IMG/VR virus record: IMGVR_UViG_3300031772_000014
Span: 11,151-75,150 of that record
Strand: one strand, 5' to 3'
DNA length: 64,000 bases
Source: a virus
Shown: positions 6,549 to 60,380 of the stretch, piece by piece
Position numbering within the stretch: position 1 is the stretch's first letter
Layout: each line of letters begins with the position of its first letter
Translations under genes and position numbers: made by a program
Notes under the pieces: model-generated
What the model was told of the DNA's origin: nothing
Database searches by the model: none
Seen by the model: the letters and a program-made list of their open reading frames with translations, nothing else

Positions 6549-9500
6549 AAGTACACGTGGGAGGGCACGACGTTTTCGCCCTTGGCGTTGCGAGCAAGCC
6601 GAGGAAGACCGAACTCAGCCCCGTAGACCACGCCAGGAATCGGATGGGCTCCGTGGATGCTGGAAACCATCCCCGTCGCGGCAGCTTCCGAGATGGTCGT
6701 ACGGAGACGTTGATGCTGAAGGCGGGCCATCCAATCATCATGCAGAGACAAGGGGAGCATGTCGACTCCCATGAGCACTGGGCTGTGCAGGATCTGACCC
6801 TTGCCACCGGTCTTCAAGTCTCGGTTCATCTGGTTGATCACAGACGTCGGATAGAACTCTCCCCGCATCAAGTGCGGGTGGTCGCCAGGATCTTCCACCT
6901 TCGTGATGTTCGACATCGCACGAACCATGACCTCTATGGCGCGTCGACGAACACCTTCAGCCTTGTAGAGATCGTGGATCTCATCGGCCAGATGGTTCTG
7001 TACGTGGTCCATGCTCTTGGTCGCCTTGTAGAGATCGTGCGGGTTCACGACCGTACGAAGCGGATCTGACAAGGAGCGCCCTGCCTCCACGTGCATCCCC
7101 ACGGTCGGTGGCGTCCACAGGGCCTGACCCTTCGGCGGAATGGCTCCTGGAAGATTGATGTGAAGGTCCAGACCATTGTCGTCCTTGCCGACGAAGTGCG
7201 ATGTGCCGCCGACCCAGATGCGCGTACCCGTGGACTCCTTGTCGATCTTGTCGATCTTCCCAGAGGCCATCGAGACCGTGGCGGAGTTCGGGATCTTCTT
7301 GTGCAGCTTCGTGAGCTGCTCGAAGCGAGCGAAGGAGTTCACGGCCTTTGAGCCGCCGCCAGACTCAGCAACGCCTCCCGTGTGGAAGAGCTTCAGGGTG
7401 AGCTGCACCGCCCGCTCCCCAACCGCGTGCGCGGCCTGGATGCCCACGTTGGTACCGAACTGGTGCTCCTCCCCATCGACAGAGGGCCCCATGCACTTCT
7501 GGCAGATCCCTTTCGGGCTGTCGCACTTCAGCGGACTTCGCACCAGCACCTTGGCGTTCTTGTCCACCGCACGCATCTGACCCACCAGGTCCGGGGTGAC
7601 CAGCGTCCCCGCGGGGATGTGGAGCCCACCGGACCTGAAGTCTGCTGCGAGGTGCCGGTCATGCACGTCATGCTCGGAGAGCGCCATCGAGATGCCCTTC
7701 GAGGTCCCGCAGTCGTGCTTGTCGATCATGAGGTTCATCGAGGTGTTCATCAAGAGTTTCGACATCGCGCCGGGCTCCTGGACCTCCTGGACCTTCATGA
7801 CGGTTCCTCGACGAGCTCCGTGGAGCTGCGTCCAGTACTCCCCTAGGTCGAGACCTTCCGCGTAGCTGTTCTTGATCGGAACCGGGATGTTCTGGCTCTT
7901 GGAGTCCTTCATGATGAGCGGGGACATCACCATCTGCTTGTACTGGTCCCAGCTCGGCTTGGTCCCGGCGGCGGCCATCATGAACAAGTTCGAGGGGTTC
8001 TTCTTCGCCTCCTCCTTGTGCTGCGTCTGCATGTCCTCGCCGGCCTTGAGCCAGACGTTCACGGACTGCCGGTCCTTATCCTTCTCGTTGATGGTCTTGC
8101 TGCCGTTGATGGCATCCACCTTCGTCTGCGCGGCCTTGAGGATGGGGTCCCTGACCGAACGGATGGGATCGAAGTCCTTCAGGCTGAGCGAGTGCGTCCC
8201 GATGGAGAGGTGCTTGTCGGGGATGAGGTTCGTCTTGATGATCCCGTACGAGGCGTCGTACCCCAAGTCCTTCACGTCGTTGATGACTCGACCGAAGTCA
8301 TGCCGGTGATCTTTGCCCAGGGTATCGAGCATGGTCACCAACCCCTTCTTGTCCACCTGGAAGTCCAAGTCATGCAGAATCTTGTTCTGCATCGGCTTCG
8401 GGAGGATGTTCGCCAAGAGCACGCGACCAGCCGTCGTCTCCTTGCCATTCAGGTGCACGATGTCCGTGTAGTCAATCTTGCCCGTGTGCAGGGCAGAAAC
8501 GACCGATGCGTGGTCGGCGAACTTCTTGTCCGTCTTCTTGTCCGTCCGCGAAAGCTTGTAGAGACCCAGAGCAGACTCCAACGTGGGGCGGTACATGACC
8601 TCCCCGGAGGACTCGCTGAAGATGTTCTTCGTCGGGTACATCCTCTCGGCTTCCTTCACGGCCTCGTGGCTGATGGGGACGTAGACCGACATCGCGTCTC
8701 CGTCGAAGTCAGCGTTGAAACCACCCGTCACGAGAGGGTGGATCTTGATGGCGCTGCCTTCGACCGTCTTCGCCTTGAACGCCTGGACGGAGTACTTGTG
8801 CAGCGCAGGGTCACGCTTCAAGATGACGGGGCGCTCGCTCATGACCTGGTCGAGAGCTTTCCAGACCATCGGGTCCTTCTTCCCACGGTGCACCTCAGAC
8901 AGCTTCTCCTGGGCATCGAGGGTGTGCGCGGCCGTGCCTTGCTGCACAAGCTGTCGAACCACGAACGGACGAAAGAGCGTGAGAGCGGCTTCCCTGGGAA
9001 GACCAACCTCGTCGAGCCCAAGGTTCGGCTCTGGGACGATGGTGGAGCGCATGGTCATGTCCTGCTTGCGCTGCGCCAACGTCTTCTGGAAGTAGCCTTC
9101 CTTCGGCTGAGAGCCGGCAATAACCTCGAGGATGCCCTTCTCCTTCTTGTCCTTGTTCACGCTCCCGATGCCCATGATGGCTTTCACGCCGTCGTAGTAG
9201 GAGGTGCGCTGCTCTACCTTCCCCGCATCCGTGAGGTTCTTGGAGAGGATGGGATCCTTGAGCTTGGTGTTGATCTGCGCGAACTTCATGTAGAGGCCGT
9301 TGATGTCCTCGTACTTGATGGCTCCCTGCTCCATCTGATTGATGGGACGGGTGTTCGGCGGCATCACGGGCAGGTTGTGGAGGATGTACGCCTCAGAGGG
9401 CTTCATCCCCAAGTCCTTGAGGACCGTGAGGTACTTCACTTTCTTGAGCGCTCGGTCCACGTTCCCAGGTGACGTGGACCCCAACTCGAGCTTCGCTTTC

Positions 9501-12500
9501 GCTAGGTCCTTGGTCACGTCGATCCTGTCGAGCAGCGTCTTGATACCGGGGCCTCCACGGACACCTGCCACGCTGGTAGTGATCTCTCCCGTCCCAGGCA
9601 CGACACCCTTGGTGCCGTCGATGATGGAGTTGAACTGCTTCTGGGTGATGCCCGTGAGCTTCTTGATCGGCTCCTGGAAGAGCGGGTTCGGAAGCGCTTC
9701 CGCGAGCGCGATGTGGGACCACTTAGTCCCACCGTGACCGCCGGTCACCTTGTCATCGAACAAGCCACCAGGCATCGGCTCGTACTCACCGCTCTTGTTC
9801 GTCTTCGCCCGGACGGGTGAGTTACCAGCCGTCTTCAACTCACCCGCGGACATGTTGAGGATGTGCTTGTCCGTCAAAGGGGAGACGTGGAACTCATGCC
9901 CCTTCTTCTCGATGTTGATGCCAGTACCTTGGAGCATCTGGGTGAAGCGGTGGAAAGCGAACGTCGGACGAGGCGGCGGCGGCGGCATCCCGTTCTGAAT
10001 CGCGTTCCAGATGTCGTTGTGCTGGTTTCCTTGCGTCCATCGCTTCGCTTCGTTCGTCTGGATGTCGTTGCCCTCGGACTTCCAGGTCTGCATCTCTCGG
10101 ATGTTCGCCTTCGCGCCGTGCGCGAGCATCGAGTAGAGCCCGAGAGCTCCCAGGCTCTGACCGCCGGCGTGACCGCCACCGGTAGGCTGGAGGAAGGAGT
10201 CGTACCCCTCCGCCTCGGTCAGCTTCGGCAAGCCCATCCCGGAACGTACCGAGAGCTTCTTGTCCACCTGGTGGACCAACTTCATCATGTACTGCTTGCC
10301 CACCAGAGCTTCCCCGATGGGGAGTTTCGTCATGGGATCGATCAGGTGCTCGGTGTCGCTGAGCCCGTGCTGCTTCAACTCACCCTTGACCTTCTCGAGG
10401 TAGTCCCCCGTGGTCGAGTCGAAGTTATGGACGAGGTACGGCTTGCCGGTCTTCTCGGCAATCTTGGACACAGCCGTCTCGAGCACCTGCCCGATGTTCA
10501 TGCGTCCAGGGACGCCAGCAGGGTTCAGCAAAACCTCGGTGGGCTTCCCGTCTGCCGTGTGCGGCATCTCCTTGTTTGGAAGCACCAAGGTCACGATGCC
10601 CTTGTTGCCGTAGCGCCCGGCAATCTTGTCACCGACCTGCATGGGCTCGATGGTGCGGACATGGACGGAGATGTTCTCTCCGGTCTTGTGGACCCCCACC
10701 ACCTCACCCTTGAAGTCAGACGTCCACCGGACGGACTTGTCCGTGTGCTGGTTGATCATGCTCTTCCGAAGAGCCGCCACACCCGTCCGGTCCTTGAGCT
10801 GGTACGGCATCGTCGCGAGGATGAGCGGGTCACCAGACTTGACCGTGGCCCCAATCTTCACGACCCCGTGCTCATCAACGTTCTTGTACTGCTCCGCCGT
10901 GAAGGCTGTGAGGTGTTGCTGCCGGAACTTCTCCGGAGAGAACACCATCCCCTCCTTCTTCTCGACGTCATGCTTGTGCAAGTGCTCGCTGGAGAGCATC
11001 TGCGCGGCTGTCTCGCTGATGACCACCCCGTCCTCGAAGTTGTAACCCTTGAAGGGGATGTACGCGACGCGGAGGTTGGTACCCAGCGCCAACGCCCCGT
11101 TCTTCGAGTAGTTCGTGTCCGCGACGATCTGCCCAGCCTTCACCTTGTCCCCAACCTTCACGAGCGGGGTCGAGTTCATCGAGCTCTTGGCGTCGTTCAA
11201 CGGGTAGTGATGGTAGAGCTGAATCTCGTGCTCGCCGTCCTTGCCCTTGATCGTGATGCCGTCCTTCGTGATCCCTGAGACGACGCCATCCGTCCTCGAG
11301 AAGTGCGCGGTCTGCTTCCCCACCAGATGCTCGAAGGAGTTGATCCCCGTGGTGGTGGGAGGCGTGGCCACCTGGACGAGCGGTGCTTGGCGACCGATGA
11401 GGGAAATCGCCTGCTCCATGTGACGGCTGCCCATGCTCGCGCGACCACCAGAGCTGTTGCCCAGGAACGGGATGAGGTTCGAGGTGACGTTGAATAGCTG
11501 TGACGAGTGCCGGAGCACGTAGTCGGCTTCGACGAACTTCTTCTCTTCGATCTTGTTCCCCTGCCCGACGATCTTGATCATGGGACCAGTCGGCACGGGC
11601 TTTCCGTCCTTCCAGGTCACCTGGTCCGGCAGGGCGACGTTCGAGGCGATGAACTGGTGCGGGCTGATGTCCTCCGTCTTCCCGGTGCGGATGTTGAAGA
11701 CCGGAATCTTCGCCTCGTTGCCGACCTTCTTCAAACCAATCGGCAGGCGCAGGGTCACGCCCGTCTTTTCACCCTCGGGGGTGTTGATGGGATCCAAGAA
11801 GCCGATGTGCGAGACGTTGATCATCTTCGCGTCAGCCGTCACCTGCCGGTCGCTCTTGATACCGCCCGGTCCCATGATGGTCGTCTGCATCGCCGCAGAC
11901 ACCATCTCGAGAGGATTGATCTGCTTGGCCGGGTTCGACAGGGCACTCTTCAAGAACAGGGTGCGGACGGGCTCGTTGAAGATGTCCGCTTTGATGACAT
12001 CTCGAACCCCCGTCGCCTTGGGGTTGTTGAGCTGCCGCTGCATCTTCATCTGGATGACCTTGGAGGACACCCGCATCTGATCCTGGATGAAGTCCCCTGT
12101 GGAGCGCAGGGTCTTGAACGTCAGGGAGTCCCGGTCGTCCTCTGGGGCACCACCGTGAAGGGCCAGCAACTTGTTGGACGCCCGGTGAAGAGCATCTCCG
12201 GTGACGTGCTCGAAAGCCTTACCCAGCGTGACCTGGGTCACGTCCGGGTTGATCTTCGACTCACCCATGACTTTGATGAGGTGGTCCTCCGCCGCTTCCT
12301 TGGAGGGAGCCGGGAGCTTGGTGGTGGTCTTGTAGAACTGCTCGACCGCACCATCCACCCGCTTGCCCTTCTTGTTGGCCTCGAAGATCTCCTTGCCCCA
12401 CGACTTCTCCAGAGCCTCGTCGCTGACACCCAACGTCTTCATCAGGGGGTAGAGGGGGATCTTGGCCTTCTTGTAGTCCGCGACGAAGACCTTCTTCTCC

Positions 12501-12943
12501 GGGTCGAAGACAACGTCGAAGGCAGAACGTCCAACGACGTTGAACCGGGACTCGAGCTCTCCGTTCGCTCGACGCCTCGTGTAGACGCCAGGCTTGAGCT
12601 GCCACTGGTTGTCCACCTGGTACTCCTGCCCGTCCAGGATGTAGGAGTACCGGCGGGTCATCTTCGGAAGGTCGGCCAGACGAACCTTCTTCTTGTCAAG
12701 GGTCTTGCCAGTCTCGTTGTCCTTCAACGAGAGCATCCCATGGATGGGAACGGTCCAGCTCTTGCCGTTGATCTTGGCCTCGTGCTGCGACTTGATGTCG
12801 TCCGGGTGAAGCTTGTCGTCGATCAAGACCTCGTCGAGATGCAGCGTCGTGGTCCTACCTTTGAAGGGGAACGAGGACTTCAACCCTTCCACGGTCTTGT
12901 CCCGAAGGTGGTCGAACGCATCTTGAGGATTCAGGTAGGCCAT
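6545..12943 (-). CDS. rpoBC: Single-chain multisubunit-type RNA polymerase (beta-beta' fusion), about 2132 aa
   Basis: Beta motifs TPEGEKTG, GYNFEDG, GDKIAGRYGNKG, YMMKLVHQVDKK, GGQSLG; then beta' motifs GGLFD, LPVMPPNTRP, KRDPALHK, catalytic NADFDGD, RSPLKC..C..C, GERAVQLTLKLFHTGG. Ends TAC TTA TGA. Confidence 0.95.
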   Translation of the reverse strand: MAYLNPQDAFDHLRDKTVEGLKSSFPFKGRTTTLHLDEVLIDDKLHPDDIKSQHEAKINGKSWTVPIHGMLSLKDNETGKTLDKKKVRLADLPKMTRRYSYILDGQEYQVDNQWQLKPGVYTRRRANGELESRFNVVGRSAFDVVFDPEKKVFVADYKKAKIPLYPLMKTLGVSDEALEKSWGKEIFEANKKGKRVDGAVEQFYKTTTKLPAPSKEAAEDHLIKVMGESKINPDVTQVTLGKAFEHVTGDALHRASNKLLALHGGAPEDDRDSLTFKTLRSTGDFIQDQMRVSSKVIQMKMQRQLNNPKATGVRDVIKADIFNEPVRTLFLKSALSNPAKQINPLEMVSAAMQTTIMGPGGIKSDRQVTADAKMINVSHIGFLDPINTPEGEKTGVTLRLPIGLKKVGNEAKIPVFNIRTGKTEDISPHQFIASNVALPDQVTWKDGKPVPTGPMIKIVGQGNKIEEKKFVEADYVLRHSSQLFNVTSNLIPFLGNSSGGRASMGSRHMEQAISLIGRQAPLVQVATPPTTTGINSFEHLVGKQTAHFSRTDGVVSGITKDGITIKGKDGEHEIQLYHHYPLNDAKSSMNSTPLVKVGDKVKAGQIVADTNYSKNGALALGTNLRVAYIPFKGYNFEDGVVISETAAQMLSSEHLHKHDVEKKEGMVFSPEKFRQQHLTAFTAEQYKNVDEHGVVKIGATVKSGDPLILATMPYQLKDRTGVAALRKSMINQHTDKSVRWTSDFKGEVVGVHKTGENISVHVRTIEPMQVGDKIAGRYGNKGIVTLVLPNKEMPHTADGKPTEVLLNPAGVPGRMNIGQVLETAVSKIAEKTGKPYLVHNFDSTTGDYLEKVKGELKQHGLSDTEHLIDPMTKLPIGEALVGKQYMMKLVHQVDKKLSVRSGMGLPKLTEAEGYDSFLQPTGGGHAGGQSLGALGLYSMLAHGAKANIREMQTWKSEGNDIQTNEAKRWTQGNQHNDIWNAIQNGMPPPPPRPTFAFHRFTQMLQGTGINIEKKGHEFHVSPLTDKHILNMSAGELKTAGNSPVRAKTNKSGEYEPMPGGLFDDKVTGGHGGTKWSHIALAEALPNPLFQEPIKKLTGITQKQFNSIIDGTKGVVPGTGEITTSVAGVRGGPGIKTLLDRIDVTKDLAKAKLELGSTSPGNVDRALKKVKYLTVLKDLGMKPSEAYILHNLPVMPPNTRPINQMEQGAIKYEDINGLYMKFAQINTKLKDPILSKNLTDAGKVEQRTSYYDGVKAIMGIGSVNKDKKEKGILEVIAGSQPKEGYFQKTLAQRKQDMTMRSTIVPEPNLGLDEVGLPREAALTLFRPFVVRQLVQQGTAAHTLDAQEKLSEVHRGKKDPMVWKALDQVMSERPVILKRDPALHKYSVQAFKAKTVEGSAIKIHPLVTGGFNADFDGDAMSVYVPISHEAVKEAERMYPTKNIFSESSGEVMYRPTLESALGLYKLSRTDKKTDKKFADHASVVSALHTGKIDYTDIVHLNGKETTAGRVLLANILPKPMQNKILHDLDFQVDKKGLVTMLDTLGKDHRHDFGRVINDVKDLGYDASYGIIKTNLIPDKHLSIGTHSLSLKDFDPIRSVRDPILKAAQTKVDAINGSKTINEKDKDRQSVNVWLKAGEDMQTQHKEEAKKNPSNLFMMAAAGTKPSWDQYKQMVMSPLIMKDSKSQNIPVPIKNSYAEGLDLGEYWTQLHGARRGTVMKVQEVQEPGAMSKLLMNTSMNLMIDKHDCGTSKGISMALSEHDVHDRHLAADFRSGGLHIPAGTLVTPDLVGQMRAVDKNAKVLVRSPLKCDSPKGICQKCMGPSVDGEEHQFGTNVGIQAAHAVGERAVQLTLKLFHTGGVAESGGGSKAVNSFARFEQLTKLHKKIPNSATVSMASGKIDKIDKESTGTRIWVGGTSHFVGKDDNGLDLHINLPGAIPPKGQALWTPPTVGMHVEAGRSLSDPLRTVVNPHDLYKATKSMDHVQNHLADEIHDLYKAEGVRRRAIEVMVRAMSNITKVEDPGDHPHLMRGEFYPTSVINQMNRDLKTGGKGQILHSPVLMGVDMLPLSLHDDWMARLQHQRLRTTISEAAATGMVSSIHGAHPIPGVVYGAEFGLPRLARNAKGENVVPSHVYL

Positions 12944-13006
12944 CGGTAGGAACCTCTTGGCACGGTACAGCACCGGCGAGTAGCCGAGCAAGAAGACGTG
13001 AAGATA

Positions 13007-13036
13007 GGGAACAAGAGTAGCGCAGGAACTTCACGC
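13007..13036 (+). promoter_or_regulatory. Conserved leader/promoter motif, copy 1
   Basis: GGGAACAAG...CACGC (30 nt) followed by SD AAGGAG; same length and ends as copies at 23027 and 27955. Confidence 0.5.
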
Positions 13037-39399: not shown

Positions 39400-39878
39400 T
39401 GATTCGCATCGACCTCGTGGGCCTTCCGCCGTCGTCCAACAACGCCTACGTGGAACTGCCACCTATCGTGAGGGGAAAGAAAGTCATCCCCCGCGGTAGG
39501 CGGCTCTCGGCGGAAGGTGAGAAGTACAAGCGGGAGACCATCACGCACATCGTGAGGAACTACCCGAATGAGCTCTCGCAGGTAAAGCCCGACGTTGGGT
39601 TGTTCCTGTACGTGCGCTTCTTCTTCGAGGCGCTCTACAACAAGGGGTGGCCAAAAACAGCGGAAACACGGTACAAGAGGATTGACGTTACGAACCGGGT
39701 CAAGCTCCTCGAGGACTGCGTGAAAGATGCCTGCGGCATCGATGACTCGCAGAACGAGTTCGTTCTCCTCGAGAAGCGCCAAGGCCCGGACGCGACGGTT
39801 GTATTCATCTGGAACCTAGACAAGGAGGTGCCCCCTGGACTTGACGAGCTCTCACGACTCTTACTGGGACCGTTGTAA
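39399..39878 (+). CDS. rusA: RusA-like resolvase (ends at 39863 if TTA is a stop)
   Basis: PPSSNNAY, DVTNRVKLLED...IDDSQ; in-frame TTA at 39861, five codons before TAA. Confidence 0.7.
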   Translation: MIRIDLVGLPPSSNNAYVELPPIVRGKKVIPRGRRLSAEGEKYKRETITHIVRNYPNELSQVKPDVGLFLYVRFFFEALYNKGWPKTAETRYKRIDVTNRVKLLEDCVKDACGIDDSQNEFVLLEKRQGPDATVVFIWNLDKEVPPGLDELSRLLLGPL

Positions 39879-42729: not shown

Positions 42730-42927
42730 TTACCTGTTCGGGACGTGGTCCGCGATGATCACTTCACCGTTCGCGTGAACGGTAATGACCCCCACGGTAC
42801 CCTTGCGTTGACCCACGGCCTGGATGGCCTGCCAGATCTTGATCCCAAGTGCCTGGTCCATCATCGGGTCCACGTTGTTCACGTTGATTACCTGATGTGG
42901 CCCGAAGGTGAAGCTGTATGTCGACAT
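42730..42927 (-). CDS. Small hypothetical protein (65 aa)
   Basis: GAGG SD; fills the gap in the late operon. Confidence 0.6.
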   Translation of the reverse strand: MSTYSFTFGPHQVINVNNVDPMMDQALGIKIWQAIQAVGQRKGTVGVITVHANGEVIIADHVPNR

Positions 42928-42936
42928 ATCGTGACC

Positions 42937-43950
42937 TCAGAAGGCAGGGAGGACAGTTCCGTTGACCCACACCGTGACCCGCCCAGAGCTCAGGACATGC
43001 GGTGCGGCGGTCTCGAAGGTGGTCTTGAGGGTGATCCTATCCACGGCAATCACACCCACAGTCCCTGGGAAACTTACCAGGGCTTGTTGACTTCCACCGC
43101 TTATCGCAGTCCACGCTGACAATCGGTCAGCGGATGGCCATCCCTCGTTCACGGAGAAGTTCCTGTCAGATAGGCCTGCCCCGTATGACCTGTCTGGCCC
43201 AGTAACTTGGAAGTCCCTGAGCGTGGTGGGGCTCCTTTGTCCAGCGGAGAACCCTAGCCAGTAAAGAGTCCAAGGGTCTCCGTAAAGGATCTCGAAGCTA
43301 CCGGCTGGGTTCAGGGACTTGATTTTCAGGAAGTTGCCGACAAGGCTCACCGAGGCCCCGCCACCAAGTTGAACCTGTAGCGCGACCTGTAGCGCCAGGA
43401 GACTGGTCCAGTTTAGGGTAGTTACAGTGACTACCCCGACCACCCCATCCAACTTGTATCCGAAGAGACCGTCGTAGGTCACGAAGGGGTACGTGTAGAG
43501 CCCTACATCCGCGCCAAGGATGGACGGTTCCAGCGCACCGATCCGCAGCGTACAAAGAGGGACCAACAAGGTCCCGGCAGCAGCAAGTCCTGCCGAGAGC
43601 GTAGCGGTGGTGGTCGTGTCTCCGGCCGAACCAGGGACGATGATTGGGTGCGACAACGCCAGGCCGATTGACTCGATGAGGAACGCCGGTTTCTGCGGAA
43701 CCGCCACGGTGTCGACAAGGTGCCCCGGGTTCAGCGGCGGCAACCAGATGTCATTGAAAAGGACAACCCCACCAGGCCCAGACGAAAGACCATTGAGCAC
43801 GATGTCTCGCGCGAAGGAGAACTTGGCCCCAACGCCACCACGTAGGTCAGCGTTCGTGGTACCGACACCGTTGGGGTACGTGGTGATCTCCGGGTCGTAC
43901 AGGAAACCACGCTGCGTGTTGACGAAGAACTTTGGGTAGGTGCGGTCCAT
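42937..43950 (-). CDS. Tail-associated protein (337 aa; MDRTYPKFF...), merged with the upstream gene in the ORF track
   Basis: TTAGGA-tcgaac-ATG: an SD-like site and ATG follow the in-frame TTA at 43960. Confidence 0.6.
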   Translation of the reverse strand: MDRTYPKFFVNTQRGFLYDPEITTYPNGVGTTNADLRGGVGAKFSFARDIVLNGLSSGPGGVVLFNDIWLPPLNPGHLVDTVAVPQKPAFLIESIGLALSHPIIVPGSAGDTTTTATLSAGLAAAGTLLVPLCTLRIGALEPSILGADVGLYTYPFVTYDGLFGYKLDGVVGVVTVTTLNWTSLLALQVALQVQLGGGASVSLVGNFLKIKSLNPAGSFEILYGDPWTLYWLGFSAGQRSPTTLRDFQVTGPDRSYGAGLSDRNFSVNEGWPSADRLSAWTAISGGSQQALVSFPGTVGVIAVDRITLKTTFETAAPHVLSSGRVTVWVNGTVLPAF

Positions 43951-43959
43951 GTTCGATCC

Positions 43960-46293
43960 TAACGGTACCGGGTAACCGCCGGTCCTCTCCCAGAAGATGT
44001 TGTTTCCTAGCTGCCTGCCCACGTAAACGTCGATGGCCCCATTCGGCCCAAAGGTCGGGGTCAAGAAGATGTCCAGTAGGTTGAAGAACGTGGGGACCGG
44101 TACCAGGAAGGCGCTATCGGAGAAACATCCGATGAGAACCAATGAAAGGCTGGTGAGTGGGTTCTGTCGGTGGATCACCAACCTCACCTCGCTATCGATC
44201 AGCGCATTGATCGACACGTTCCTGAGAGCAACAACCAGTAGCGGGCTTGGACCCACGTACGAGGTAGAGATGAAGATGGACAGACCATCGTAGGTGGGGA
44301 CCGGGACGATGTTGCTCGCGGTAACGATGGTCTGGATGCTCTGGCCAAGCTGCTTGCCGGCCACGATGCCGTTGTAGTTGTTGAGCGGCCCGTACGCCAA
44401 CACGTTGCCGGCAAGGGCCAGGATGTTGCCCTGCTGGGAGATGATATCGTCGATGAAGGTGGCGGACTTCATGGAGATGCTGCCCACGAATGAGAAGATC
44501 CCACCAGAGCCGGTAAGTATCGACTTGGTTTCGTACGTGGACCCGGTGTTGCCGACCGACAACACTCTGTTGAAACCACCCCACGCGAAGGCGGTGTCGT
44601 TGAAGGGATCTTGACCTTGCGCGTATACCTGCATGAACCCGGTCGGTACTTGTTGAAGCAGCAAATCTGTAACCTTGGGGGGTTGGGCGTACACCATTCC
44701 CCGCGGGATGCTGCCGAACGGAAGCGAGCCGTCTGCCTCTCGCTTCTCGTCGATGCCATCACCCACGAAGAACTCCATGCTGAGCCAACGCGTGAGTAGT
44801 CCCTGGGTGCCCGTGAGGACATCCGGTTGCTCCCCATCGACAGACACAATCAAGCAGTTCTGCGCCGAAGAGGCGAAGAGCTTCTCGATGAAGTACGTCC
44901 GGCGGCGTAGCGCAAGGCCGGTCGAGTCGACGTGCTCTATCTCGAGCATGTCGTACCCAACAGAGATGGCCGAGATGCGGTCAGGACCAACCGTCAGCCA
45001 GAACCGGTTTGGTGCGGTCATGGTCAGAAGGGTTCGCCCCGGTACCGTGACCTTGTCGAATACCACCAGGGAGTTGGGCGTGATGGCCGTGAAGTTGCTG
45101 GACTCTGAGGGCTGCGTGTCCGTCCGGGGAGATACCCCCAGGAACTTCGCCATGCCCGGAAGCGGGGCACTGTGGGTAAGGCTGATCAGAGCGTTGGTCA
45201 GCGAACGACCACCGTAAGCCACGAACCCAGAACCGCCGCCGAAACCCTTCTGGGCACCAGGACCGGAGATGTCGAAAAAGTCATCGAGATGCGCGGTCCA
45301 GATGGCATCCAGAGGATCCAGGTACATGGTCCGGTACGCAGAGTCGGTGTTCCAGAAGTCACGCTGGCTCCACCCGCTCATGGCCGGGCCGGTACGCTGG
45401 TACCAGCTACCACCACCGGCCTGGTTGTGCTGGATGGCCGGCAGCCCGCTGTTGGTCGGTACCGTCGCGGGGATGTCGGCCACGGTACCCCGGCGATACC
45501 GCTCGTTCATGCCACTCAGCGCCAGGTCCCAGACCGTCGACACGTAGGGGCTGTTCCACCACGTGGATACACTGGGGGTTCCGTTCAACCTGAAGAGCTG
45601 CTTGACTACTTGATCCGCGGCCCCGACCTGCCGGCGCCCGATGGGGTCCGGGGTAGCGGTGCTGAGGTACCGGTGGACCCGGTAGTGAACCCGGAAGACC
45701 GACCAGGGCCGACCAGGCACGATGGGGACGTTGAGGTTGAGCGTCACCGCGCCGGCGGGAAACCCGGAACCGATCACCGCGCCCGCGATGCTCGCCACCA
45801 CGACCTTCGTGGCCGGGGGCACGAAGAGCTCATTCCCGAGCGTGTCCGTGACGACGAATAGTTCCTGCGGGCTCGTGGCAGGTGCATCACTCACAAACGG
45901 GAAGTCCGCGGCAGGGATGACCACACTGGTAAGGTTGCCAGGGCCTGCATTGCTGTACCCACGGAAGGTAGGAACCGCAAAGCTGTTGTGGAGGAGGTCA
46001 TCGAGGTAGTCGATGTTCTCCGCCAGGGCGCCATGGCCCCTGTTCGCGTCTGACGCGGTCGCGTCCTCCCCGAAGGCCCAGAAGTACGTGCCCTGGTTCG
46101 GCCCACCGATCTTCTGCCCCACAGCACCGAGGAAGTTGTCCACCGGGGCCGAGCCGAGACCACCCACACCACCGCTCGCGACGTTGATGTAGTCGTAGGT
46201 CTTGCCGGTGGTCTGTGCGGCCGAACCGCCAGTCGGAATCGAAACGGCGAAGAGCCAGGCGGGGTTCGTGAAACGGTGAAAGCGGGTGGGCAT
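43960..46293 (-). CDS. Tail-fibre-like protein 2 (777 aa), ending at TTA
   Basis: Full-length paralog of 46989..49181 (FHRF, NRG..AL.EN.D.LDD, DPL.A.W, GYD..EI, AWGGF, DVY.G). Confidence 0.65.
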
Positions 46294-46303
46294 CTGCGGC
46301 TCC

Positions 46304-46978
46304 TAACGGGAGGGCTGCGAAGTCGATGACTTCGTGACCGATGATGTTGACGAGGAGCACCGGCGGAACCCCAGCAAACCCCGTGATGGCGTTCACGAAG
46401 CTTTCGTTCCTGACCTTGATGGCAAGCTCGAAGGAAGTGAGAAAGCCTCCGATGGCCAGCGGGACAGCTACAGTTTCGAGCGTTCCTGGGATGGCGAGCA
46501 AGAGCGTCTGAGCGGCAGGTAGCGCGACACCCGTACTTGACCAGATGGCGCCGCCAAAGTCGTTCTTGGGGGTGGTGTCGTTACGACGAATCTCGATGAA
46601 GAACGACGCACCAGCGGTCTGCGGGTTGATGAGCCCGATAGCCCCACCGGTCAGGACTTCCACCTGATCGATGACGAAGAATGTCTTGTCAGTCGAGAAC
46701 TTGTCAACCGGGCGAGAGAACTGAAGGATACGGGTCCAGAAGTTCGCAGGCCCAGGGTTGAAGAACTCCGTGGGGTAGATGAGCGCGAAGTCGTTCACCG
46801 CACCAGCCGCGATGTTGTTCTGTAGCTGTACCCGCGTCTGGATGCGAACCTGGTTGCCCGTGTACCCCCTGGGACGAGGAGGGTCTCCACTTCCGTTCAC
46901 GCCCACAGGCGCAGGCGAACCCCCCGAGGTTGGGATCCACTGGTAGCGCGACGAGTACCCTGAAGAGACCTTGGACAT
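46304..46978 (-). CDS. Tail-associated beta-rich protein (224 aa), ending at TTA
   Basis: Protein-like up to ...VIDFAALP, then TTAGGAG and the next ATG 10 nt later. The standard code adds 102 junk residues. Confidence 0.65.
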
Positions 46979-46988
46979 GGTGGATACC

Positions 46989-49181
46989 TAACGTAGCGTT
47001 GTAACGTTTCACCGACATGAGGATCTTGCTCATACCACCAGCACCGTGGGTAACCAGGCCCGTGTAGACGTCGACGTACCCGACCGCGTTCGAGAACCAG
47101 CAGTCCGACAAGTTCTCGAACACGTAGTTGCCGGGCCATGCGCTCAAGTCTGCAATCTGCATTGGTGCACCGTCGTGTCGAATGACCCACGTGATCACGC
47201 GACCCATGTCGTTCGAGTTCACGTTCAACGACGGGAACGTGATGGCCACGATGGGGGACGTGGTGGGGCCCACCGTGGAGTACTCGTTGTAGTCGGACGT
47301 CTCCGCGTCAGCCCCGAACAGCAAGGTCACGATGAACGGGAGGATGAACGTGGTCGTCGCCCCAGGATCCCTGGCCACGACCTTCTTGGCCTCCACGGCA
47401 CCGTCGCCACGGAGCACGCCGTTGTCGAAGTACTTCCCGGTGACCGCGAAGTTCAAAGACGAAGTTCGGAACCCGCCCCACGCCAGGGCATTCGTCTTCC
47501 CGGTCTCATTTGAAGCGTAGAGCTTCGCGGAGTAGTCATTCCTGTCCGCGTTGGTTGGGATGGGCGTTGTATCCAACTGGTGCGGGGCCGCGTAGAAGAG
47601 CCCGTCGAACTTCAGCTTGCTGGTCGTCCCGATGTCGTACCCGGCCACGCCGTCGCTGACCCCGAACACCATCGAGCGCCATCGAATCGTGCAAGGCGTG
47701 TTGGGCAGGAACGTGGGGGTCGTGCCGTCCATGTTCTGGATCATGGCGACCGTGCCGCTGAAGAGGTCCACGATCACGTACGTCTTCGGGGCAGCCCCGG
47801 GGGAGAGCTGGATCTCCACTAGGTCGTACCCCTTGGCCACGGAGGTCCGCCACTCACCGAGGACGTTCGCGGCCCAGAAGTCCGGGATCGACAGGATGAC
47901 CCAGCAGTCCGCTCCAGCGTTGAGCAACACCGCCGCGGTGTCTTGTCCAACGAACGTGAACGAGCTTCCGGGGATGATGCCGGACATCGGGTGGTTGGAG
48001 GTATGCAGGAAGGAGGAGTACCCGGACCCCTGCCGGTTGACCCCGAACCCAGTGTCGTGGGCCCCGTAGGTCATGCGGCGCTGCCCGTAGACCACGAACC
48101 CGGAGGAGCCTCCCTTGTGGAGGTTTCCCTTGTCCTCAATCCAGGCAGACCAAAGAGCATTGAGGGGATCGAAGTACTCGAAAGTTGCACTTAGCTGGCT
48201 CAAGGCGCTCACCATCATGGGTGAGTGCCTGGATAGGTAGTTGCGCTCTCCCCAGAACCCGGGCTGTGCTCCGGGCGCCGCGTTCGCGGCGTTCGGGGTC
48301 ATGTACGAAATGGGCGCCGGCACCGTGTCGATGAGCGGGTCGGTGTTCCGCAGCAACATCTGGTTGAGCCCGTGATGGTTCAACTGCCAGAGGCTGTGCT
48401 CTCCGCTCCCAACACCGTCGCCAGAGTACCAGGTGGAGTGCGCGTACGCCTCGGGCTTCCCATCAAGTCGGTACAGGAAGCGGGCCACCGCACCATCAAT
48501 GCCGTTCGGGTACGGGCCATGAATGTCGGGCGTGATGAGCGCCAGGTTGCTGGCCCTACGGTAGTTGACGAAGATGCCCCCGCTGAACGGAGGGGTGGGC
48601 GTGAACCCGTTGAACGTGACCGTGACCGGGCCAGGCACGAACCCGCTCCCGATGGGGGACGTGCTGGCCACCACACGTAGGTTGTCGTTCAACGCAGGGA
48701 TGAAGTACGCATCCGGGCTGAACACGCCACCGACAAACCCATTCGTGATCGTGAAGAGATCATCGAAGGTCTCCGGGCCAGACCCAAGCCACACGTATGA
48801 CCCAGGCGGGAACGTGTATGAGTTGATAGCGGGACCGAAGAGCGGAGTGGCCACGAAGACAGACTCACGTACCCCGAAGACCTGGTGCACGACGTCATCT
48901 AGGAAGTCGGTGTTCTCCCCGAGGGCCTTGAAGCCACGATTGACGTTCGCGCTGTACCCCGGGTCGTCAAAGCCGACCCAGTACGTGAACGGCGTCGGCC
49001 CAACCAGCGGGGGAGGGTTCGCGAACGCCGTACCGCCACCACCGGTCGCCCCGGAGACGATGTTGACTCGGTCATAGACCACACCGCCCGAGGCAGGTTG
49101 AGGCTGCGAGGTACCGGGACCCAGAGGAATCGCGACGTACCCGGTCCAGGTCGGATCTACGAATCGGTGGAAGTTCGACAT
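46989..49181 (-). CDS. Tail-fibre-like protein 1 (730 aa), ending at TTA
   Basis: Protein-like up to ...KRYNAT; TTA 46989-46991, next ATG 10 nt later. The standard code adds 95 junk residues. Confidence 0.65.
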
Positions 49182-49191
49182 TCAGGTGGCC

Positions 49192-49884
49192 TCAGAACTT
49201 GATCGTCCAATCCACTTCCAACGAGAAGGCGTTGGTCTTGGATAGGCTGTCGAAGGTGTCATACGCCACGCAGGTGTTGTGCGGCTGGTTCACGTACGTG
49301 GCGATGGGGCTGTGGAGAAAGAGGCCGATCTCGGAGATGGGCACCGTGAGGAACGGCCCGTAACTGATCTCGATCTCCGGGAAGACCCTGACGAACTTCA
49401 CCGAGGTCGTGGTCGGGTACACGGCCGGCGACTGCACCTGCCCGAGCCAGATGTCCGCGATGTTGTAGAAAGGCGGAGGGTCAGGGACAGCCGGGATGGG
49501 GCTCAGGATTCGAACAGGCCGCTCGAGACGGAGCACCGTGGGGTCCGTGTCGGTCTGGATGTTCGGCCCCGGGTAGTGCCCGGCGGGCGCGGGTGGCGCG
49601 GCCCCGAGAGGCGTCGCGTTCGCGACCGCGAGCTGGAGCTGCCTCGTGCCGCCGATGCCGAGGCCCATGTACCTGATGCCCCGGTCGTCCTTCAAGGTCA
49701 CGGGGAGCGGGGGCTGCGGGGGCGGACCTCCCGGCAAGGCGAAGTACGAGATGTGCTGCGGCAACCACTCACGCCCGAGGTTCAAGAAGATGTTGTGACC
49801 GCGGATGCGGCGCACGATCTTGCCCCGAGAGCGCAAGGTGAGCTCCAAGTTGCTCGCTACCTCGATTAGAACTTTGTCGCTCAT
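49192..49884 (-). CDS. Baseplate/tail-collar-type structural protein
   Basis: HNIFLNLGR, YMGLGIGG, ISEIGLF, FDSLSKT...VDWTIKF pattern typical of fibre-attachment proteins. Confidence 0.6.
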   Translation of the reverse strand: MSDKVLIEVASNLELTLRSRGKIVRRIRGHNIFLNLGREWLPQHISYFALPGGPPPQPPLPVTLKDDRGIRYMGLGIGGTRQLQLAVANATPLGAAPPAPAGHYPGPNIQTDTDPTVLRLERPVRILSPIPAVPDPPPFYNIADIWLGQVQSPAVYPTTTSVKFVRVFPEIEISYGPFLTVPISEIGLFLHSPIATYVNQPHNTCVAYDTFDSLSKTNAFSLEVDWTIKF

Positions 49885-55938: not shown

Positions 55939-56262
55939 ATGCCCGCCTTCAAAGAGATGGACCCAGAACTAGTTACGAAGCTCCTGGAAGGATACGAGAA
56001 CGAGCTAGGGCCCGCGACCACAAAGCTCGAAGCGTTCTACAGGCAGTTCAAATGCCCTAAATGCAGCGGGCATATGAACAAGCACTTCATCAGCGTCCAG
56101 CACGCCTTCGGGGATGAAGAACTTCCGATACCTAGGTCCGGGTTGAAGTGCCTGACCTGCGACCTCATCGTAGATCCGCACAGCGGCATCCTTCTGGGCC
56201 TCGGGACTGCCGCCGCTGAGGTGGCCCAGAAGGTAGCGGTCGGGTACAAAGAAGAAGGTTAG
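55939..56262 (+). CDS. Small zinc-ribbon protein antisense to the tail block
   Basis: AAGGA SD; CPKC...CLTC. Confidence 0.7.
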   Translation: MPAFKEMDPELVTKLLEGYENELGPATTKLEAFYRQFKCPKCSGHMNKHFISVQHAFGDEELPIPRSGLKCLTCDLIVDPHSGILLGLGTAAAEVAQKVAVGYKEEG

Positions 56263-59200
56263 ATGAGGTTCCTGGTCAGGTTGATCCGGTCTGGGATGAA
56301 CGCCGCCAGCCTGCCCAGGTTGATACGGTCCTCGCTCTTCTCGAGGGACACCGACCGGTCGTTCTCGTAGACGATGCCGTAGAGCGTGATGGGGTTCACG
56401 ATGCTCTCGGTACCACGCTGCACGAGGATGGCCGAGATGTCCGAGACCTCTAGCTGCTGCTCCGGGAAGGTCGCCTGGATGAGCGTCTCGATGGCGGGCT
56501 GAACGTCCGCGACCTTCGGGCCTCCGGAGTACTGGAGGTCGAAGCGGATGAAGTGCGGCATGAGGTGCCGGGCCAGCGGGCTCGAGCAGATGACCCGCTC
56601 TGTCTCGGCCAGGAGGAAGCTGTTGATGCTCCCAGTGAGCGACGAGTACTCGTAGTTCACCTGGATGTTCTGCCCGGACACCTGCGTGGAGTTCACGGGG
56701 TCGTCGTCCGTCCCGATCTCGTTGATGGTCCGAGACACGTGCAGACGCACCTCCTCCGCGGCGGAGAAGACCAGGTCCTCGTTGTCGGTCGTGAGGTAGT
56801 ACCCGTCAGACTTGTACTTCCCCGGCTCCATGTAGATGTCGTTGCCGATGTTGTACACGTCGCCCGCTCCCTCTGAGACGAGCTCGACGTCCCAGTAGTA
56901 GAAGCCCGCGGGGCCGATGTTCAGCGACATCGAGGTAGCTCCGATCCTCTGTGAGCCAGGACGGAACACCTTGAACTGCTGGTTGGGGACGGTGAGCGGG
57001 ATGGCGGGGAACGCCGGCGAGACCGTCACGAGGTTGCCAGCAAGAGCCGTGATCAAATACCTACCAGCGTGCGGGGACTGATTGTTGACGTCCGTCAGGG
57101 GGAGGCCGAGGACCGCGTTCGCGGTACCGAAACCACGGATGATGATCAGAACCTCCGGGTCGAACTTGATGGCGTTCGTGCCCGTCAGGCTCGCGATGGT
57201 CTTCCCGATGTTGCTGTTGATCTGGGAGATGATCCCAGCACGCGTGACCTCCGTGGGGAGAATCGCGTTCGAGTCGTGGATGAACGTGATGACTCGATCA
57301 GCCGCGTTGTCGAACGAGATGATCAGCGTCTTGAGGTTCGCAACTACCGGATCAGGTAGCGGGATGGTTCCGAAGATGGGGCGGTAGTCGACAACCAGGA
57401 TGTCGAGACCCGCGATGATCTGCTTGTTGATGAAGTCCGTGCTGACCGACGACAACGTGTTTACCGTACTGAACCCATCATGCGGCTTTGGTCCCGCCGG
57501 CAACGCGGGGATGTGCTGCGAGTCCAGGGTGGGGTCTGGGTAGTACCGAAGCACGGACTGCGTGTCCGGGTTCGTGGCCGTGAAGACCGTGTCCTGCGAT
57601 ACCTCCACGGTGGTGGGCTCTAGGAAGTAGAGACGGGTCTTCCCAAGGGACCTGGCACCAATCTCCGAATGCACGAAGACCTCTGGGGCGAAGTCGTGGT
57701 TGACCGAGATACCCTTGGGGTACGTGAGTCCCACGATGGGCGAAGCCAGCGCGGTGCCGGGGTACGGGTTCACGCCCGCCATCGTGAAGAAGCCGGTCTG
57801 CTTCCCATCGATGGTCTGGAAGACATCGAAGGTCAGGTCGATGGGAGGGCGAACCGAGTCCACGAAGAAGTTCGCCGCAGCAGAGACCAGGTCAGACCTG
57901 GCCATCGTGGAGTCGACGTAGATCAGAGCTCCAGGGAAACCACCGTCACCAAAGATCTCCGGGATGGCCGAGGTCGCCAGGGCCGTGTCACCGATGATCT
58001 GCACCTTGCCGTTCACGGGAATGATGCCCACGCGGTTACCGGGCAGCAGGACAGCGGCCGGACCCACGACGGGGTTCAAGACAGCGTTGATCTCCAGGAC
58101 GATGTTCGCCGCAGAGATTGGGTTCGCGCCCGCGAAGACAATGGAGAAGTCAGGCAGCGGAGGTAGCGGCGGAGCTGGCTGCGCGAAGCGGATGACCAGC
58201 AACTTGCCCTGTAGCGCGGCAGCCCCCGTGGGCAGCTTGGTACCCACGACGCCCAGCAAGGTGTCGGTGATGTCGACCTTGATCCCCTTCGCGGGGTTCG
58301 AGAACGCCAAGGAGTACCCACCGAGCGTCTTCGCGTAGGGGATGTTCGATCCGATGGGCTGGCTGCTCGCATCCAGGAGGTTGATGCTCGTGACCCGCAC
58401 GAACGGACGAATCACTCCCCCGCCCTTGTTCGGCTTGAAGACCGTGAAGATCACCCCAGAGGTCGTGTGCGGTACCGCGTGATCCAGAACGAGTTGCGAG
58501 AAGTTCGGGAACGGGGTCACGGCCGTGATCGTGTAGTCCCCGACATCCGCCCCCGACTCGATACGGAGTACATCCCCGATGGCGGTCCCGTACTGGTCGA
58601 AGTTCACGCCCGACGCGGTCGTCACGGTCGTGGAAGCCTGGAAGGTCTGGAGGTCGCTTCCGCTGATCCTCGTCTCCTTGGGTTCCACGAAGTCGATGTC
58701 GATGATGTCGAGGAGACGCCAGCGGAAAGGTCCAGCCAGAACCGGGAACGGCGCGTACACGGCAAACGCCGGGTTGCCGAGGATCGTGAAGGGCTGTGCC
58801 GCCGCGGCTATCCGGTAGATACCCGCCGCAGGGCCATCCATGATCTGAAGCGTGTAGAGCTTCTGGGCCGCGGTCGCGATGGCCTCGTAGGTGTTGTCCC
58901 CGTTGATGTAGTTGGCACCAGGGAAGGGGGAGAGGATGAGGTCCTCGAGGGTCACGGTGCCGCCGCCGCTGGAAGACCCAAGCACCCCTGAAAGCACGGG
59001 CCTGTCGTCCACGACGTTGTTGATCACAAGAGCATTCGTGTCGAGGACCGTACCCCTCACGTAGGTGTCCGCAGAGCCACCGACGTGGATGGTCCCATCG
59101 GGGATCGTCACGGTTCCGTTCGGGCTGTCTGGGAACAGGATCCCGCCTGGGATCTTGGACAACGTGAGCTCGCTCTTCCTGAAACTCCAGGTGATGTTGA

Positions 59201-60335
59201 ACAGCGCGAGAGGCAACGTCTGGTCCACGAAGTCCACAGTGGTGGGGTCCACGACGGATTTGATCACGAAGTCACGCGCGGGAGGCGCACCAAGGAAAGC
59301 TCCGCTCAGGGTGATCGTGTAGCCCTTCGCGGACACGTCGAAGCCCGGTGGACCGATCAACGCCACGAAGTCGATCAGGCCATCCAGTGCGGTGTCCACC
59401 TTGAAGCGCCTGGTGGTTGCCTTGTTGTCGCCGTCGTTCTGACTCAGTCCATGGAGGCCGGCACGAACCAACTTGCCAAGGCCCCCGCCCTCGATGATGT
59501 CCCGATGCATCTCCGGGTCGTTGAACCCCACCACGTTCAGGCGGGTCATCTCCGGGAAGTTCTTCATGAGCTGGGCGACGATGCCCCGCTTCGTGACCAG
59601 GGACCGCTCCGTGAGCTCCTGCTGGACGCGGTTGATGTAGTCGACCGCGGTCTCTGCCGCGATGCCGTTCTTGAAGCGTCCCTTGTTGGTGACCCTCACC
59701 GCTGAGTCGAGACCCTGGATGGTCGCAAGCTCGCCGGGCTCGATGTTGTACTGGTCGCCTGCCTGCTCGGCCGAGACGTTCACGTCGAAGTAGTAGAGAC
59801 CGCCCTCGACGTTGAAGAGCATCTCGTCCACGGAGATGCTCTGCACAGACGTGGGGAAGAAGCTCAGACCCGACCTCGAGATACACACGTTGGCCGGGTT
59901 GATGCTCTTGCTCTGTGGCTGGGAGAAGTACACCCGGCAAACTCCGCTCGCGAACTTCCCGGTGTGACGCTCGCTGAAGAAGTTCGCCCCCAGGGCCTCG
60001 GCCTCGTCCACGGTGAGCGTGGCTGGGTCCCTGAAAGAAAGGTTGTTCTTCACCCGCTGGTTCTCCCGGACCACTGGGTCCAGGAAGAGCTCCGTGGGCT
60101 TCACGAGCATGTCCGTGAGCGCATCACCATCGCGCGTGGAGAAGTCCGGGAACTCCTGCGTGAGTCGGTCGAGCAGGAACGCCCGGACATCCACCGCGAA
60201 CGGATCTGGGCCTAGCCGCCGCAAGAGCGGTTGGATCACGATGTTGTCTACGTTCGACCCCGAACCCGTGTCGATGTTCGCGTCGTACAGAGACAGACGT
60301 TCCTGAAGGAACGCTTGGAGATCCAGAATCGACAT
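56259..60335 (-). CDS. Baseplate J-like protein, greatly enlarged (1358 aa)
   Basis: LGANFFSERHTGKFASG, AEQAGDQYNI, NGIAAET...YINR, GGSADTYVRG. Confidence 0.75.
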   Translation of the reverse strand: MSILDLQAFLQERLSLYDANIDTGSGSNVDNIVIQPLLRRLGPDPFAVDVRAFLLDRLTQEFPDFSTRDGDALTDMLVKPTELFLDPVVRENQRVKNNLSFRDPATLTVDEAEALGANFFSERHTGKFASGVCRVYFSQPQSKSINPANVCISRSGLSFFPTSVQSISVDEMLFNVEGGLYYFDVNVSAEQAGDQYNIEPGELATIQGLDSAVRVTNKGRFKNGIAAETAVDYINRVQQELTERSLVTKRGIVAQLMKNFPEMTRLNVVGFNDPEMHRDIIEGGGLGKLVRAGLHGLSQNDGDNKATTRRFKVDTALDGLIDFVALIGPPGFDVSAKGYTITLSGAFLGAPPARDFVIKSVVDPTTVDFVDQTLPLALFNITWSFRKSELTLSKIPGGILFPDSPNGTVTIPDGTIHVGGSADTYVRGTVLDTNALVINNVVDDRPVLSGVLGSSSGGGTVTLEDLILSPFPGANYINGDNTYEAIATAAQKLYTLQIMDGPAAGIYRIAAAAQPFTILGNPAFAVYAPFPVLAGPFRWRLLDIIDIDFVEPKETRISGSDLQTFQASTTVTTASGVNFDQYGTAIGDVLRIESGADVGDYTITAVTPFPNFSQLVLDHAVPHTTSGVIFTVFKPNKGGGVIRPFVRVTSINLLDASSQPIGSNIPYAKTLGGYSLAFSNPAKGIKVDITDTLLGVVGTKLPTGAAALQGKLLVIRFAQPAPPLPPLPDFSIVFAGANPISAANIVLEINAVLNPVVGPAAVLLPGNRVGIIPVNGKVQIIGDTALATSAIPEIFGDGGFPGALIYVDSTMARSDLVSAAANFFVDSVRPPIDLTFDVFQTIDGKQTGFFTMAGVNPYPGTALASPIVGLTYPKGISVNHDFAPEVFVHSEIGARSLGKTRLYFLEPTTVEVSQDTVFTATNPDTQSVLRYYPDPTLDSQHIPALPAGPKPHDGFSTVNTLSSVSTDFINKQIIAGLDILVVDYRPIFGTIPLPDPVVANLKTLIISFDNAADRVITFIHDSNAILPTEVTRAGIISQINSNIGKTIASLTGTNAIKFDPEVLIIIRGFGTANAVLGLPLTDVNNQSPHAGRYLITALAGNLVTVSPAFPAIPLTVPNQQFKVFRPGSQRIGATSMSLNIGPAGFYYWDVELVSEGAGDVYNIGNDIYMEPGKYKSDGYYLTTDNEDLVFSAAEEVRLHVSRTINEIGTDDDPVNSTQVSGQNIQVNYEYSSLTGSINSFLLAETERVICSSPLARHLMPHFIRFDLQYSGGPKVADVQPAIETLIQATFPEQQLEVSDISAILVQRGTESIVNPITLYGIVYENDRSVSLEKSEDRINLGRLAAFIPDRINLTRNLI

Positions 60336-60380
60336 GGGAGGGAGCCTACCAGGGGCGGGCTCCCTAGCCCAAGTTCATCA

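Follow-up and report, generated by a model that had tools for sequence, protein, structure and literature searches.

The window analysed here is a stretch of 64,000 nucleotides (bases 11151-75150) of the 75,150-bp IMG/VR virus record IMGVR_UViG_3300031772_000014 (G000 below), an uncultured sediment phage with a GC content of 61.6% and a CheckV-estimated completeness of ~41%. On its minus strand lies a tail cassette in which two large proteins, fibre 1 and fibre 2, are each followed by a smaller partner. We consider it very probable, from comparison with related sequences, that the cassette consists of four separate, translationally coupled late genes, and that the first three of them are closed by UUA, which would act as a stop beside TGA, TAA and TAG in this lineage. 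Much of the comparison relies on G001, an IMG/VR contig of 94,293 bp from another metagenome, which is collinear with G000 from ~11.6 kb on, with core genes mostly 65-90% identical (tblastx best-frame segments) and fibre proteins 49-64% identical.

Layout of the cassette and its three TTA junctions

Under the standard code the region reads as three open reading frames (ORFs), each with a single in-frame TTA in its body:

49181..46704, minus strand: ORF 1, 825 amino acids (aa), in-frame TTA at codon 731 (46991-46989)
46978..45998, minus strand: ORF 2, 326 aa, in-frame TTA at codon 225 (46306-46304)
46293..42937, minus strand: ORF 3, 1118 aa, in-frame TTA at codon 778 (43962-43960)

When these are cut at TTA the genes abut neatly, with products of 730, 224, 777 and 337 aa, in the following arrangement:

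46992..49181, minus strand: fibre 1 coding sequence, 730 aa (P0001), tail-fibre-like
46976..46991, minus strand: junction 1; TTA 46991-46989, overlapping AGGT Shine-Dalgarno-like bases, partner 1 ATG 46978-46976 10 nt on
46307..46978, minus strand: partner 1 coding sequence, 224 aa (P0002)
46291..46306, minus strand: junction 2; TTA 46306-46304, overlapping AGGAG Shine-Dalgarno sequence, fibre 2 ATG 46293-46291 10 nt on
43963..46293, minus strand: fibre 2 coding sequence, 777 aa (P0003)
43948..43962, minus strand: junction 3; TTA 43962-43960, AGGA, partner 2 ATG 43950-43948 9 nt on, in the same frame
42937..43950, minus strand: partner 2 coding sequence, 337 aa (P0004), ordinary TGA stop 42939-42937

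The junctions read TTAGGTATCCACCATG (junction 1), TTAGGAGCCGCAGATG (junction 2) and TTAGGATCGAACATG (junction 3). The coordinates, frames and gene order that had been given in the original prediction are borne out at all three: an in-frame TTA on the minus strand, GG next to it, and ATG 10, 10 and 9 nt on. The TGA junctions that flank the cassette within the operon share the build of the TTA junctions:

49179..49194, minus strand: upstream junction with ordinary stop, TGA-ggccacctga-ATG, from a 230-aa gene to fibre 1
42925..42939, minus strand: downstream junction with ordinary stop, TGA-ggtcacgat-ATG, from partner 2 to a 65-aa gene

The pattern TTAGGN{7,8}ATG has three matches in the 64-kb window, exclusively at the cassette junctions. 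Its count on its own is weak evidence, as shuffles gave a mean of 0.77 and reached three in 4 of 100 cases. What goes beyond chance is that all three matches close an ORF in frame, share a strand, fall within 3 kb and are kept in a relative. In G001 the equivalents are TTAGGTCACACCCATG, TTAGGAGCGCTCGATG and TTAGGATTCAATATG at junctions 1, 2 and 3, respectively; TTA, GG and ATG are kept and the spacer letters differ. Two sediment contigs from further sequencing runs (Logan) carry the same letters: the contig of run X2 (2401 bp, covering 45709-48109) has identical TTAs at junctions 1 and 2, with 11 single-nucleotide differences elsewhere, and that of run X3 (covering 46230-46455) is letter-identical at junction 2. 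Coding potential changes frame at this same junction 2.

Where the cassette proteins end

The position of the fibre 1 C-terminus can be judged from its homologues, of which a search of 1.84 billion representatives returned 211. Fibre 1 of G000 ends ...LMSVKRYNAT and that of G001 ...MSVQRFAAP, each followed by TTA. Distant full-length homologues (23-30% identity) end ...LMSVRRYG, ...VRRYSA or ...SVRRYSY, that is, 0-3 residues from the fibre 1 TTA. In a 56-sequence alignment, 46 of the 55 homologues stop within four residues of the TTA point, and ~20 of these share the terminal motif ..[MW]SV.R[YF] plus 0-3 residues. The AlphaFold2 (AF2) model of fibre 1 has a mean predicted local distance difference test score (pLDDT) of 69.8, rising to ~75-91 over the last 90 residues, and places a final beta-strand at residues 718-728.

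For fibre 2, which begins directly after junction 2 with the N-terminus typical of the fibre family (M..FHRF), the informative homologues are fewer. P0013 (784 aa, 36% identity, E 2e-120) aligns over its whole length, residues 1-784, with positions 1-777 of the 1118-aa ORF; its end, ...GHYAVP, pairs with ...GGYPVP, the last residues of fibre 2 before TTA. In P0007 the same P-L-G is followed by an 84-aa tail that has no relation to partner 2 and is out of register, whereas in P0008 and P0009 fibre 2 continues in frame into partner 2. The frame relation at junction 3 is therefore not conserved, and a fibre 2-partner 2 fusion is not a conserved protein. The claim that the 1118-aa ORF is two genes accordingly stands, P0013 ending before TTA and P0007 carrying a tail unrelated to partner 2; homologues are not always fused, as P0013 (unfused) and P0007 with its unrelated 84 residues both illustrate.

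The original prediction had also called the two fibres paralogous end to end and had taken this as database-free evidence for the position of the C-terminus. The N-terminal ~600 residues agree with that description: BLASTP aligns residues 2-596 of fibre 1 with 3-599 of fibre 2 (29% identity, E 1e-42), and profile-profile comparison (hhalign) aligns columns 1-581 with a probability of 100%. The C-terminal ~130-180 residues do not bear it out to the same degree; they align weakly, and forced global hhalign gives E 2.6e-4 at a probability of 19%. The distances from the last shared motif to TTA were read correctly (22 residues after VDVYTG, 18 after IDVYVG), the motifs ..D.Y.G...[IL].[WM]....[YF] of both fibres fall in register, and homologues with the ending IYWSVQRY form a bridge between the two types. 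Nevertheless, C-terminal paralogy is the weakest part of the argument, and the external comparison carries the conclusion. A further observation concerns the same region of fibre 2: P0006, from an ENA contig of 4,650 bp, is letter-for-letter fibre 2 over ~560 residues of the printed alignment and then has a different, longer C-terminal part, a pattern suggesting that closely related strains have exchanged a receptor-binding domain.

The stretches that follow the first two TTA codons in their original frames do not behave as protein:

46704..46988, minus strand: fibre 1 ORF tail past TTA, 94 codons, off-frame, overlapping partner 1; judged untranslated in the main product
45998..46303, minus strand: partner 1 ORF tail past TTA, 101 codons, off-frame, overlapping fibre 2; judged untranslated in the main product

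The fibre 1 tail is 94 aa in G000 and 81 aa in G001, of low identity and rich in Arg, Gly, Pro and His, and the partner 1 tail is 101 aa in G000 and 30 aa in G001. Within the overlaps, variation between the two genomes is greatest at the third positions of downstream-gene codons, as elsewhere in those genes, and it gives no sign of a second coding constraint in either overlap region; conservation is confined to the frame of the downstream gene, and in the partner 1 tail it is the fibre 2 frame that has coding potential. The placing of the true C-terminus at TTA thus came through all the tests that were run, namely the G001 junctions, the fibre 1 ends, P0013, P0007 and the unconserved tails. 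Taken together, a cassette of four proteins of 730, 224, 777 and 337 aa, the first three apparently closed by TTA, is supported by these comparisons.

TTA as a gene end, its possible mechanism and the rival explanations

Over the whole of G000 and G001, a self-trained codon model puts each in-frame TTA either at the end of a gene or shortly before a start, and none was found inside the gene bodies of these two genomes. When TTA is counted as a stop, it closes 7 of 57 genes in G000, 11 of 76 in G001 and 1 of 137 in G002, a complete 185-kb relative (L032), by a crude gene finder. Orthologous genes, furthermore, exchange TTA with ordinary stops:

DNA polymerase I: G000 ...VDAK-TAA; G001 ...MDAK-TTA, after which the frame stays open for 190 codons belonging to the next gene
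Gene ending at window position 40758: TAA in G000, TTA in G001
Fused beta/beta' RNA polymerase (RNAP): G000 ...SHVY-TTA-TGA (TTA 6548-6550, minus strand); G001 ...SHVY-TGA
Small gene at window ~60383: G000 ...QAA-TGA; G001 ...RAA-TTA
Spike-like gene (TTA at window 5232-5234, minus strand): TTA-cg-ATG in G000, TTA-cag-ATG in G001

Under the standard code the DNA polymerase I gene (PolA) of G001 (32877, L005), which ends at TTA, becomes an 859-codon ORF running into the next gene. The spacer after the spike-like gene differs by one base, so the frame relation of the next gene is not kept between G000 and G001. These aligned gene ends show TTA to be interchangeable with TAA and TGA at the ends of orthologous genes.

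Two more sites can be set beside these. A small plus-strand gene with TTA at 39861-39863 has a backup TAA four codons on in G000, where G001 has CAA. At 10005-10007 of G000 (1,143 bases before the window), the TAA of a plus-strand gene is, read on the minus strand, the in-frame TTA of a convergent ORF of 695 codons; if TTA is a stop, the two genes would meet in a single shared 3-bp stop.

Several considerations weigh against UUA as a stop, and we need to pay attention to them. The whole case is built on comparison of sequences. All three cassette sites are T-TAG-G in both phages. Neither tRNA genes (ARAGORN) nor an RF-1-domain gene, that is, neither tRNA nor release factor, are seen in the G000 and G001 records, whose CheckV completeness is 41-50%. 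The end of P0013 could be the end of its contig (10,263 bp) rather than a real stop. Finally, four of the RNAP relatives (52-64% identity) have TTA at conserved leucines inside RNAP, and G002 has seven in-frame TTA codons in 52,093, one of them inside RNAP and none at a gene end; its equivalent fibre junctions are TAG-gagcgcggc-ATG and TAG-cgaggggcc-ATG. G002 is thus TTA-poor without TTA stops, which means that the absence of TTA inside genes is no evidence by itself; scarcity of the codon goes further back in the group. Its use to end genes appears to be specific to the G000/G001 sublineage, and the change, if read correctly, must be recent.

Let us consider how the cassette might be translated if UUA is a stop. 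TTA overlaps the Shine-Dalgarno sequence of the next gene (T-T-AGGAG, AGGT or AGGA), with ATG 9-10 nt on, and a ribosome finishing one gene would be placed to start the next by translational coupling. The infected cell would lack an efficient UUA reader, and the peptide might be freed at UUA by a release-factor-type activity supplied by the host or by the unsequenced part of the phage. We infer a release-factor type of reading because essential proteins (the G001 DNA polymerase and the spike-like protein) end at TTA-C, where no shifted stop is available. Stalling followed by rescue through transfer-messenger RNA (tmRNA) was considered and set aside, since tmRNA rescue tags proteins for degradation, and here it would so tag essential ones.

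A host with such an activity was sought by scanning 185,579 bacterial and archaeal species for release factor 2 (RF2) in which the serine of SPF is replaced; this serine is presumably the 'Ser204' of PMC12574857. There were 46 DNA matches against ~35 expected by our own estimate, and six were real RF2 genes: four in Armatimonadia metagenome-assembled genomes (MAGs) with GPF, one in a Pseudomonas isolate and one in an Oscillospiraceae MAG. The Armatimonadia were not supported as a host lead, in-frame TTA lying inside genes there with the frame continuing in 11 of 11 cases, so that TTA is a sense codon. As an observation in its own right, these four MAGs (L052, L062, L075 and L083) have GPF where SPF is near-universal in RF2, and they end their genes most often with TAG and rarely with TAA.

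A variant of the same idea would make UUA a conditional stop, its strength set by the UUA-reading tRNA of the cell, and the TTA junctions a regulatory device rather than the result of neutral stop-codon drift; we hold this to be doubtful, though not negligible. If it were true, UUA would normally end fibre 2, occasional read-through at the in-frame junction 3 would yield a minor 1118-aa fibre 2-partner 2 fusion (perhaps an alternative fibre tip), and an abundant reader tRNA would wreck the tail genes and the polymerase together, the codon acting as a sensor of host state or identity. The same four proteins would also result from a hungry-codon +1 slip, in which UUA is slow or unreadable, the ribosome moves onto the overlapping UAG and RF1 releases the chain. 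Besides the three cassette sites, two more G001 junctions, at 73344 and 90296, are TTAG-G, the two fibre junctions of G002 have the same build when counted from their TAG, and a similar idea exists for the upstream ORF of Streptomyces adpA, with UUA followed by G or A (PMC10732093). Against this, ~9 other TTA ends in G000 and G001 are TTA-C (among them the spike-like gene in both and PolA in G001), for which a +1 move gives TAC; the G after TTA is accounted for by the overlapping Shine-Dalgarno sequence of the next gene; and re-pairing after a +1 move is not possible for the codons before TTA (ACG, CCG, CCC), as the sequence itself shows. We therefore regard the slip as unlikely.

The remaining readings fare worse. 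If UUA were simply leucine, the long ORFs would be real, as an 825-aa fibre 1, a 326-aa partner 1 and an 1118-aa fibre 2-partner 2 fusion. The standard code does leave these frames open, G000, G001, P0008 and P0009 all keep the frame across junction 3, and more distant relatives have TTA as leucine. However, homologues end at TTA, the tails vary in length and sequence, P0007 is out of register, G001 PolA would run on into its neighbour at a point where TAA stands in G000, and DNA of 61% GC can be expected to hold open off-frame stretches by chance; altogether this makes leucine a very improbable reading of the three codons. Bypassing of UUA and the 9-10-nt gap, in the style of the phiHau3 terminase, would join neighbouring frames into polyproteins. 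The published case has a similar form, UUA then a gap of ~10 nt with a Shine-Dalgarno-like sequence (PMC10732093), and junction 2 of G000 has CCG 4 nt past TTA, in frame with the next ATG. Yet the ORFs on either side encode different proteins, with homologues that begin or stop at the junction, in contrast to the phiHau3 pieces, which make one protein, and no matching take-off and landing codons occur at junctions 1 and 3, nor at G001 junctions 2 and 3; we can give bypassing hardly any credence. That a true TAA was misread as TTA in sequencing or assembly has in its favour that the two codons are one base apart and that TAAGGAG would be an ordinary junction, but it is refuted by independent assemblies: the same TTAs occur in G001, with its diverged fibres from another metagenome, and in contigs of two other samples, and TAA stops are called normally elsewhere in G000. 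UUA as a stop closing three coupled genes remains, in our assessment, the reading that the evidence favours.

Tail module, relatives and known systems

The cassette follows a Baseplate_J protein of 1371 aa (60374..56262), a 656-aa protein, a PKD-domain protein of 1357 aa and a 230-aa protein. The fibre 1/fibre 2 family is large and viral, with a conserved N-terminus and variable C-termini, and many of the 211 representatives match over the N-terminal ~100-220 residues only. Neither fibre has a match in Pfam or PHROG, and a sequence search of the PDB with fibre 1 was empty. Foldseek against BFVD places fibre 1 near tail fibre and tail proteins at E values from 1e-5 to 4e-9 but with template modelling (TM) scores of at most 0.19; Foldseek against the PDB gave nothing below E 0.001, and VIA-align reached Z of at most 6.1, for weak domain-level matches. 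From gene position together with these weak fold matches, 'tail-fibre-like' seems a reasonable label for both large proteins.

The partners have no mutual similarity. The homologues of partner 1 are of the G001 type only (67% identity), neither partner matches a known family in Pfam or PHROG, and partner 2 has no sequence match in the PDB and finds unnamed viral clusters only in the protein atlas. The AF2 model of partner 2 (pLDDT 37.5) is unusable, and no usable complex was predicted between partner 1 and residues 390-730 of fibre 1. Their position in the module would suit assembly helpers or fibre-tip proteins.

The RNAP of this phage is a single 2161-aa ORF at window 6548-13030 (minus strand) in which beta (Rpb2 domains) and beta' (Rpb1 domains) of the multisubunit type are fused. 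At least 14 contigs in IMG/VR, the longest of 194 kb, have this fused polymerase, and an RNAP search yielded 13 further relatives at 52-64% RNAP identity with genomes likewise up to 194 kb. The closest matches of the RNAP among cultured phages are in Vibrio and Salmonella phages, at ~31% identity. The cassette itself has zero DNA matches and zero protein matches in the cultured-phage collection, and the fibre 2 alignment, used as the query in scans of metagenome contigs and genome contigs, found no match. Two observations on G002 are recorded here for their own sake. The motif TTTTTAGCCCCGAGGT / TTTCTTAGCCCCGAGGT stands ~15-20 nt upstream of two large genes, at ~95,100 and ~142,030 on the minus strand, as a possible promoter or leader element of the phage. 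At 97360-97445 (complement), ARAGORN calls a tRNA-like gene between tRNA-Tyr(GTA) and tRNA-Arg(TCT) whose anticodon, 'actc', has four bases.

If the reading of UUA as a stop is correct, roughly one in eight genes of this tailed phage closes with UUA, and a sense-to-stop change of the code enters the bacterial and phage world; something must then release the peptide at UUA, whether a release factor of the host, a factor of the phage or a rescue system. Such changes have been published for mitochondria and, since 2025, for one plastid group only (PMC12574857), and in our search of the literature no paper turned up that describes UUA as a stop in a phage or a bacterium. There is a practical side as well. 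Standard gene callers fuse or over-extend such genes, giving 825, 326 and 1118 aa instead of 730, 224, 777 and 337, and databases thus hold wrong tail-fibre sequences for this lineage. With three consecutive sites, abundant virion proteins and one site in frame, the cassette would make a convenient test case.

Several known systems invite comparison with the cassette and its junctions. Tail fibres are encoded together with accessory or chaperone proteins in T4 (gp37/gp38), lambda (stf/tfa) and Mu (S/U). The cassette resembles these pairs in having a large fibre gene followed by a small one downstream of baseplate genes, and fibres with a conserved N-terminus and a variable or mosaic C-terminus; unlike in the known pairs, the partners here match no chaperone family by sequence or with confidence by structure.

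As regards UUA itself, a 10-nt bypass has been proposed for the phiHau3 terminase within what is one contiguous protein in homologues (PMC10732093). The Streptomyces and phage examples of UUA recoding share with the present junctions a rare UUA at a decisive point, a short gap, a Shine-Dalgarno-like sequence and the idea of a scarce reader. They differ in that UUA interrupts one protein there, whereas in G000 it closes complete proteins and aligns with the stops of orthologues. Nothing was found that ties this phage to Streptomyces, its nearest cultured RNAP matches being those in Vibrio and Salmonella phages. Phages are also said to recode stop codons, TAG as Gln and TGA as Trp, as Ivanova in 2014 and Borges in 2022 reportedly described. 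There, as here, genes of the lineage are mis-called under the standard code and protein lengths come out wrong, but that change runs from stop to sense by way of phage suppressor tRNAs, while in G000 it would run from sense to stop, with no visible machinery.

A parallel in kind is found in organelles. The mitochondrial code of Thraustochytrium is NCBI translation table 23. UUA serves as a stop in labyrinthulean (Thraustochytrium) mitochondria and in peDinoflagellate plastids, where it accompanies a substitution of RF2 'Ser204' (PMC12574857). In those organelles, as in the phage, UUA is missing from gene bodies and sits where homologues stop or end, so that the same comparative argument applies to both. 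Unlike the organelles, however, this is a tailed phage of a bacterium, and TTA would close only ~12-14% of the phage genes, while relatives at 52-64% RNAP identity keep the codon as leucine.

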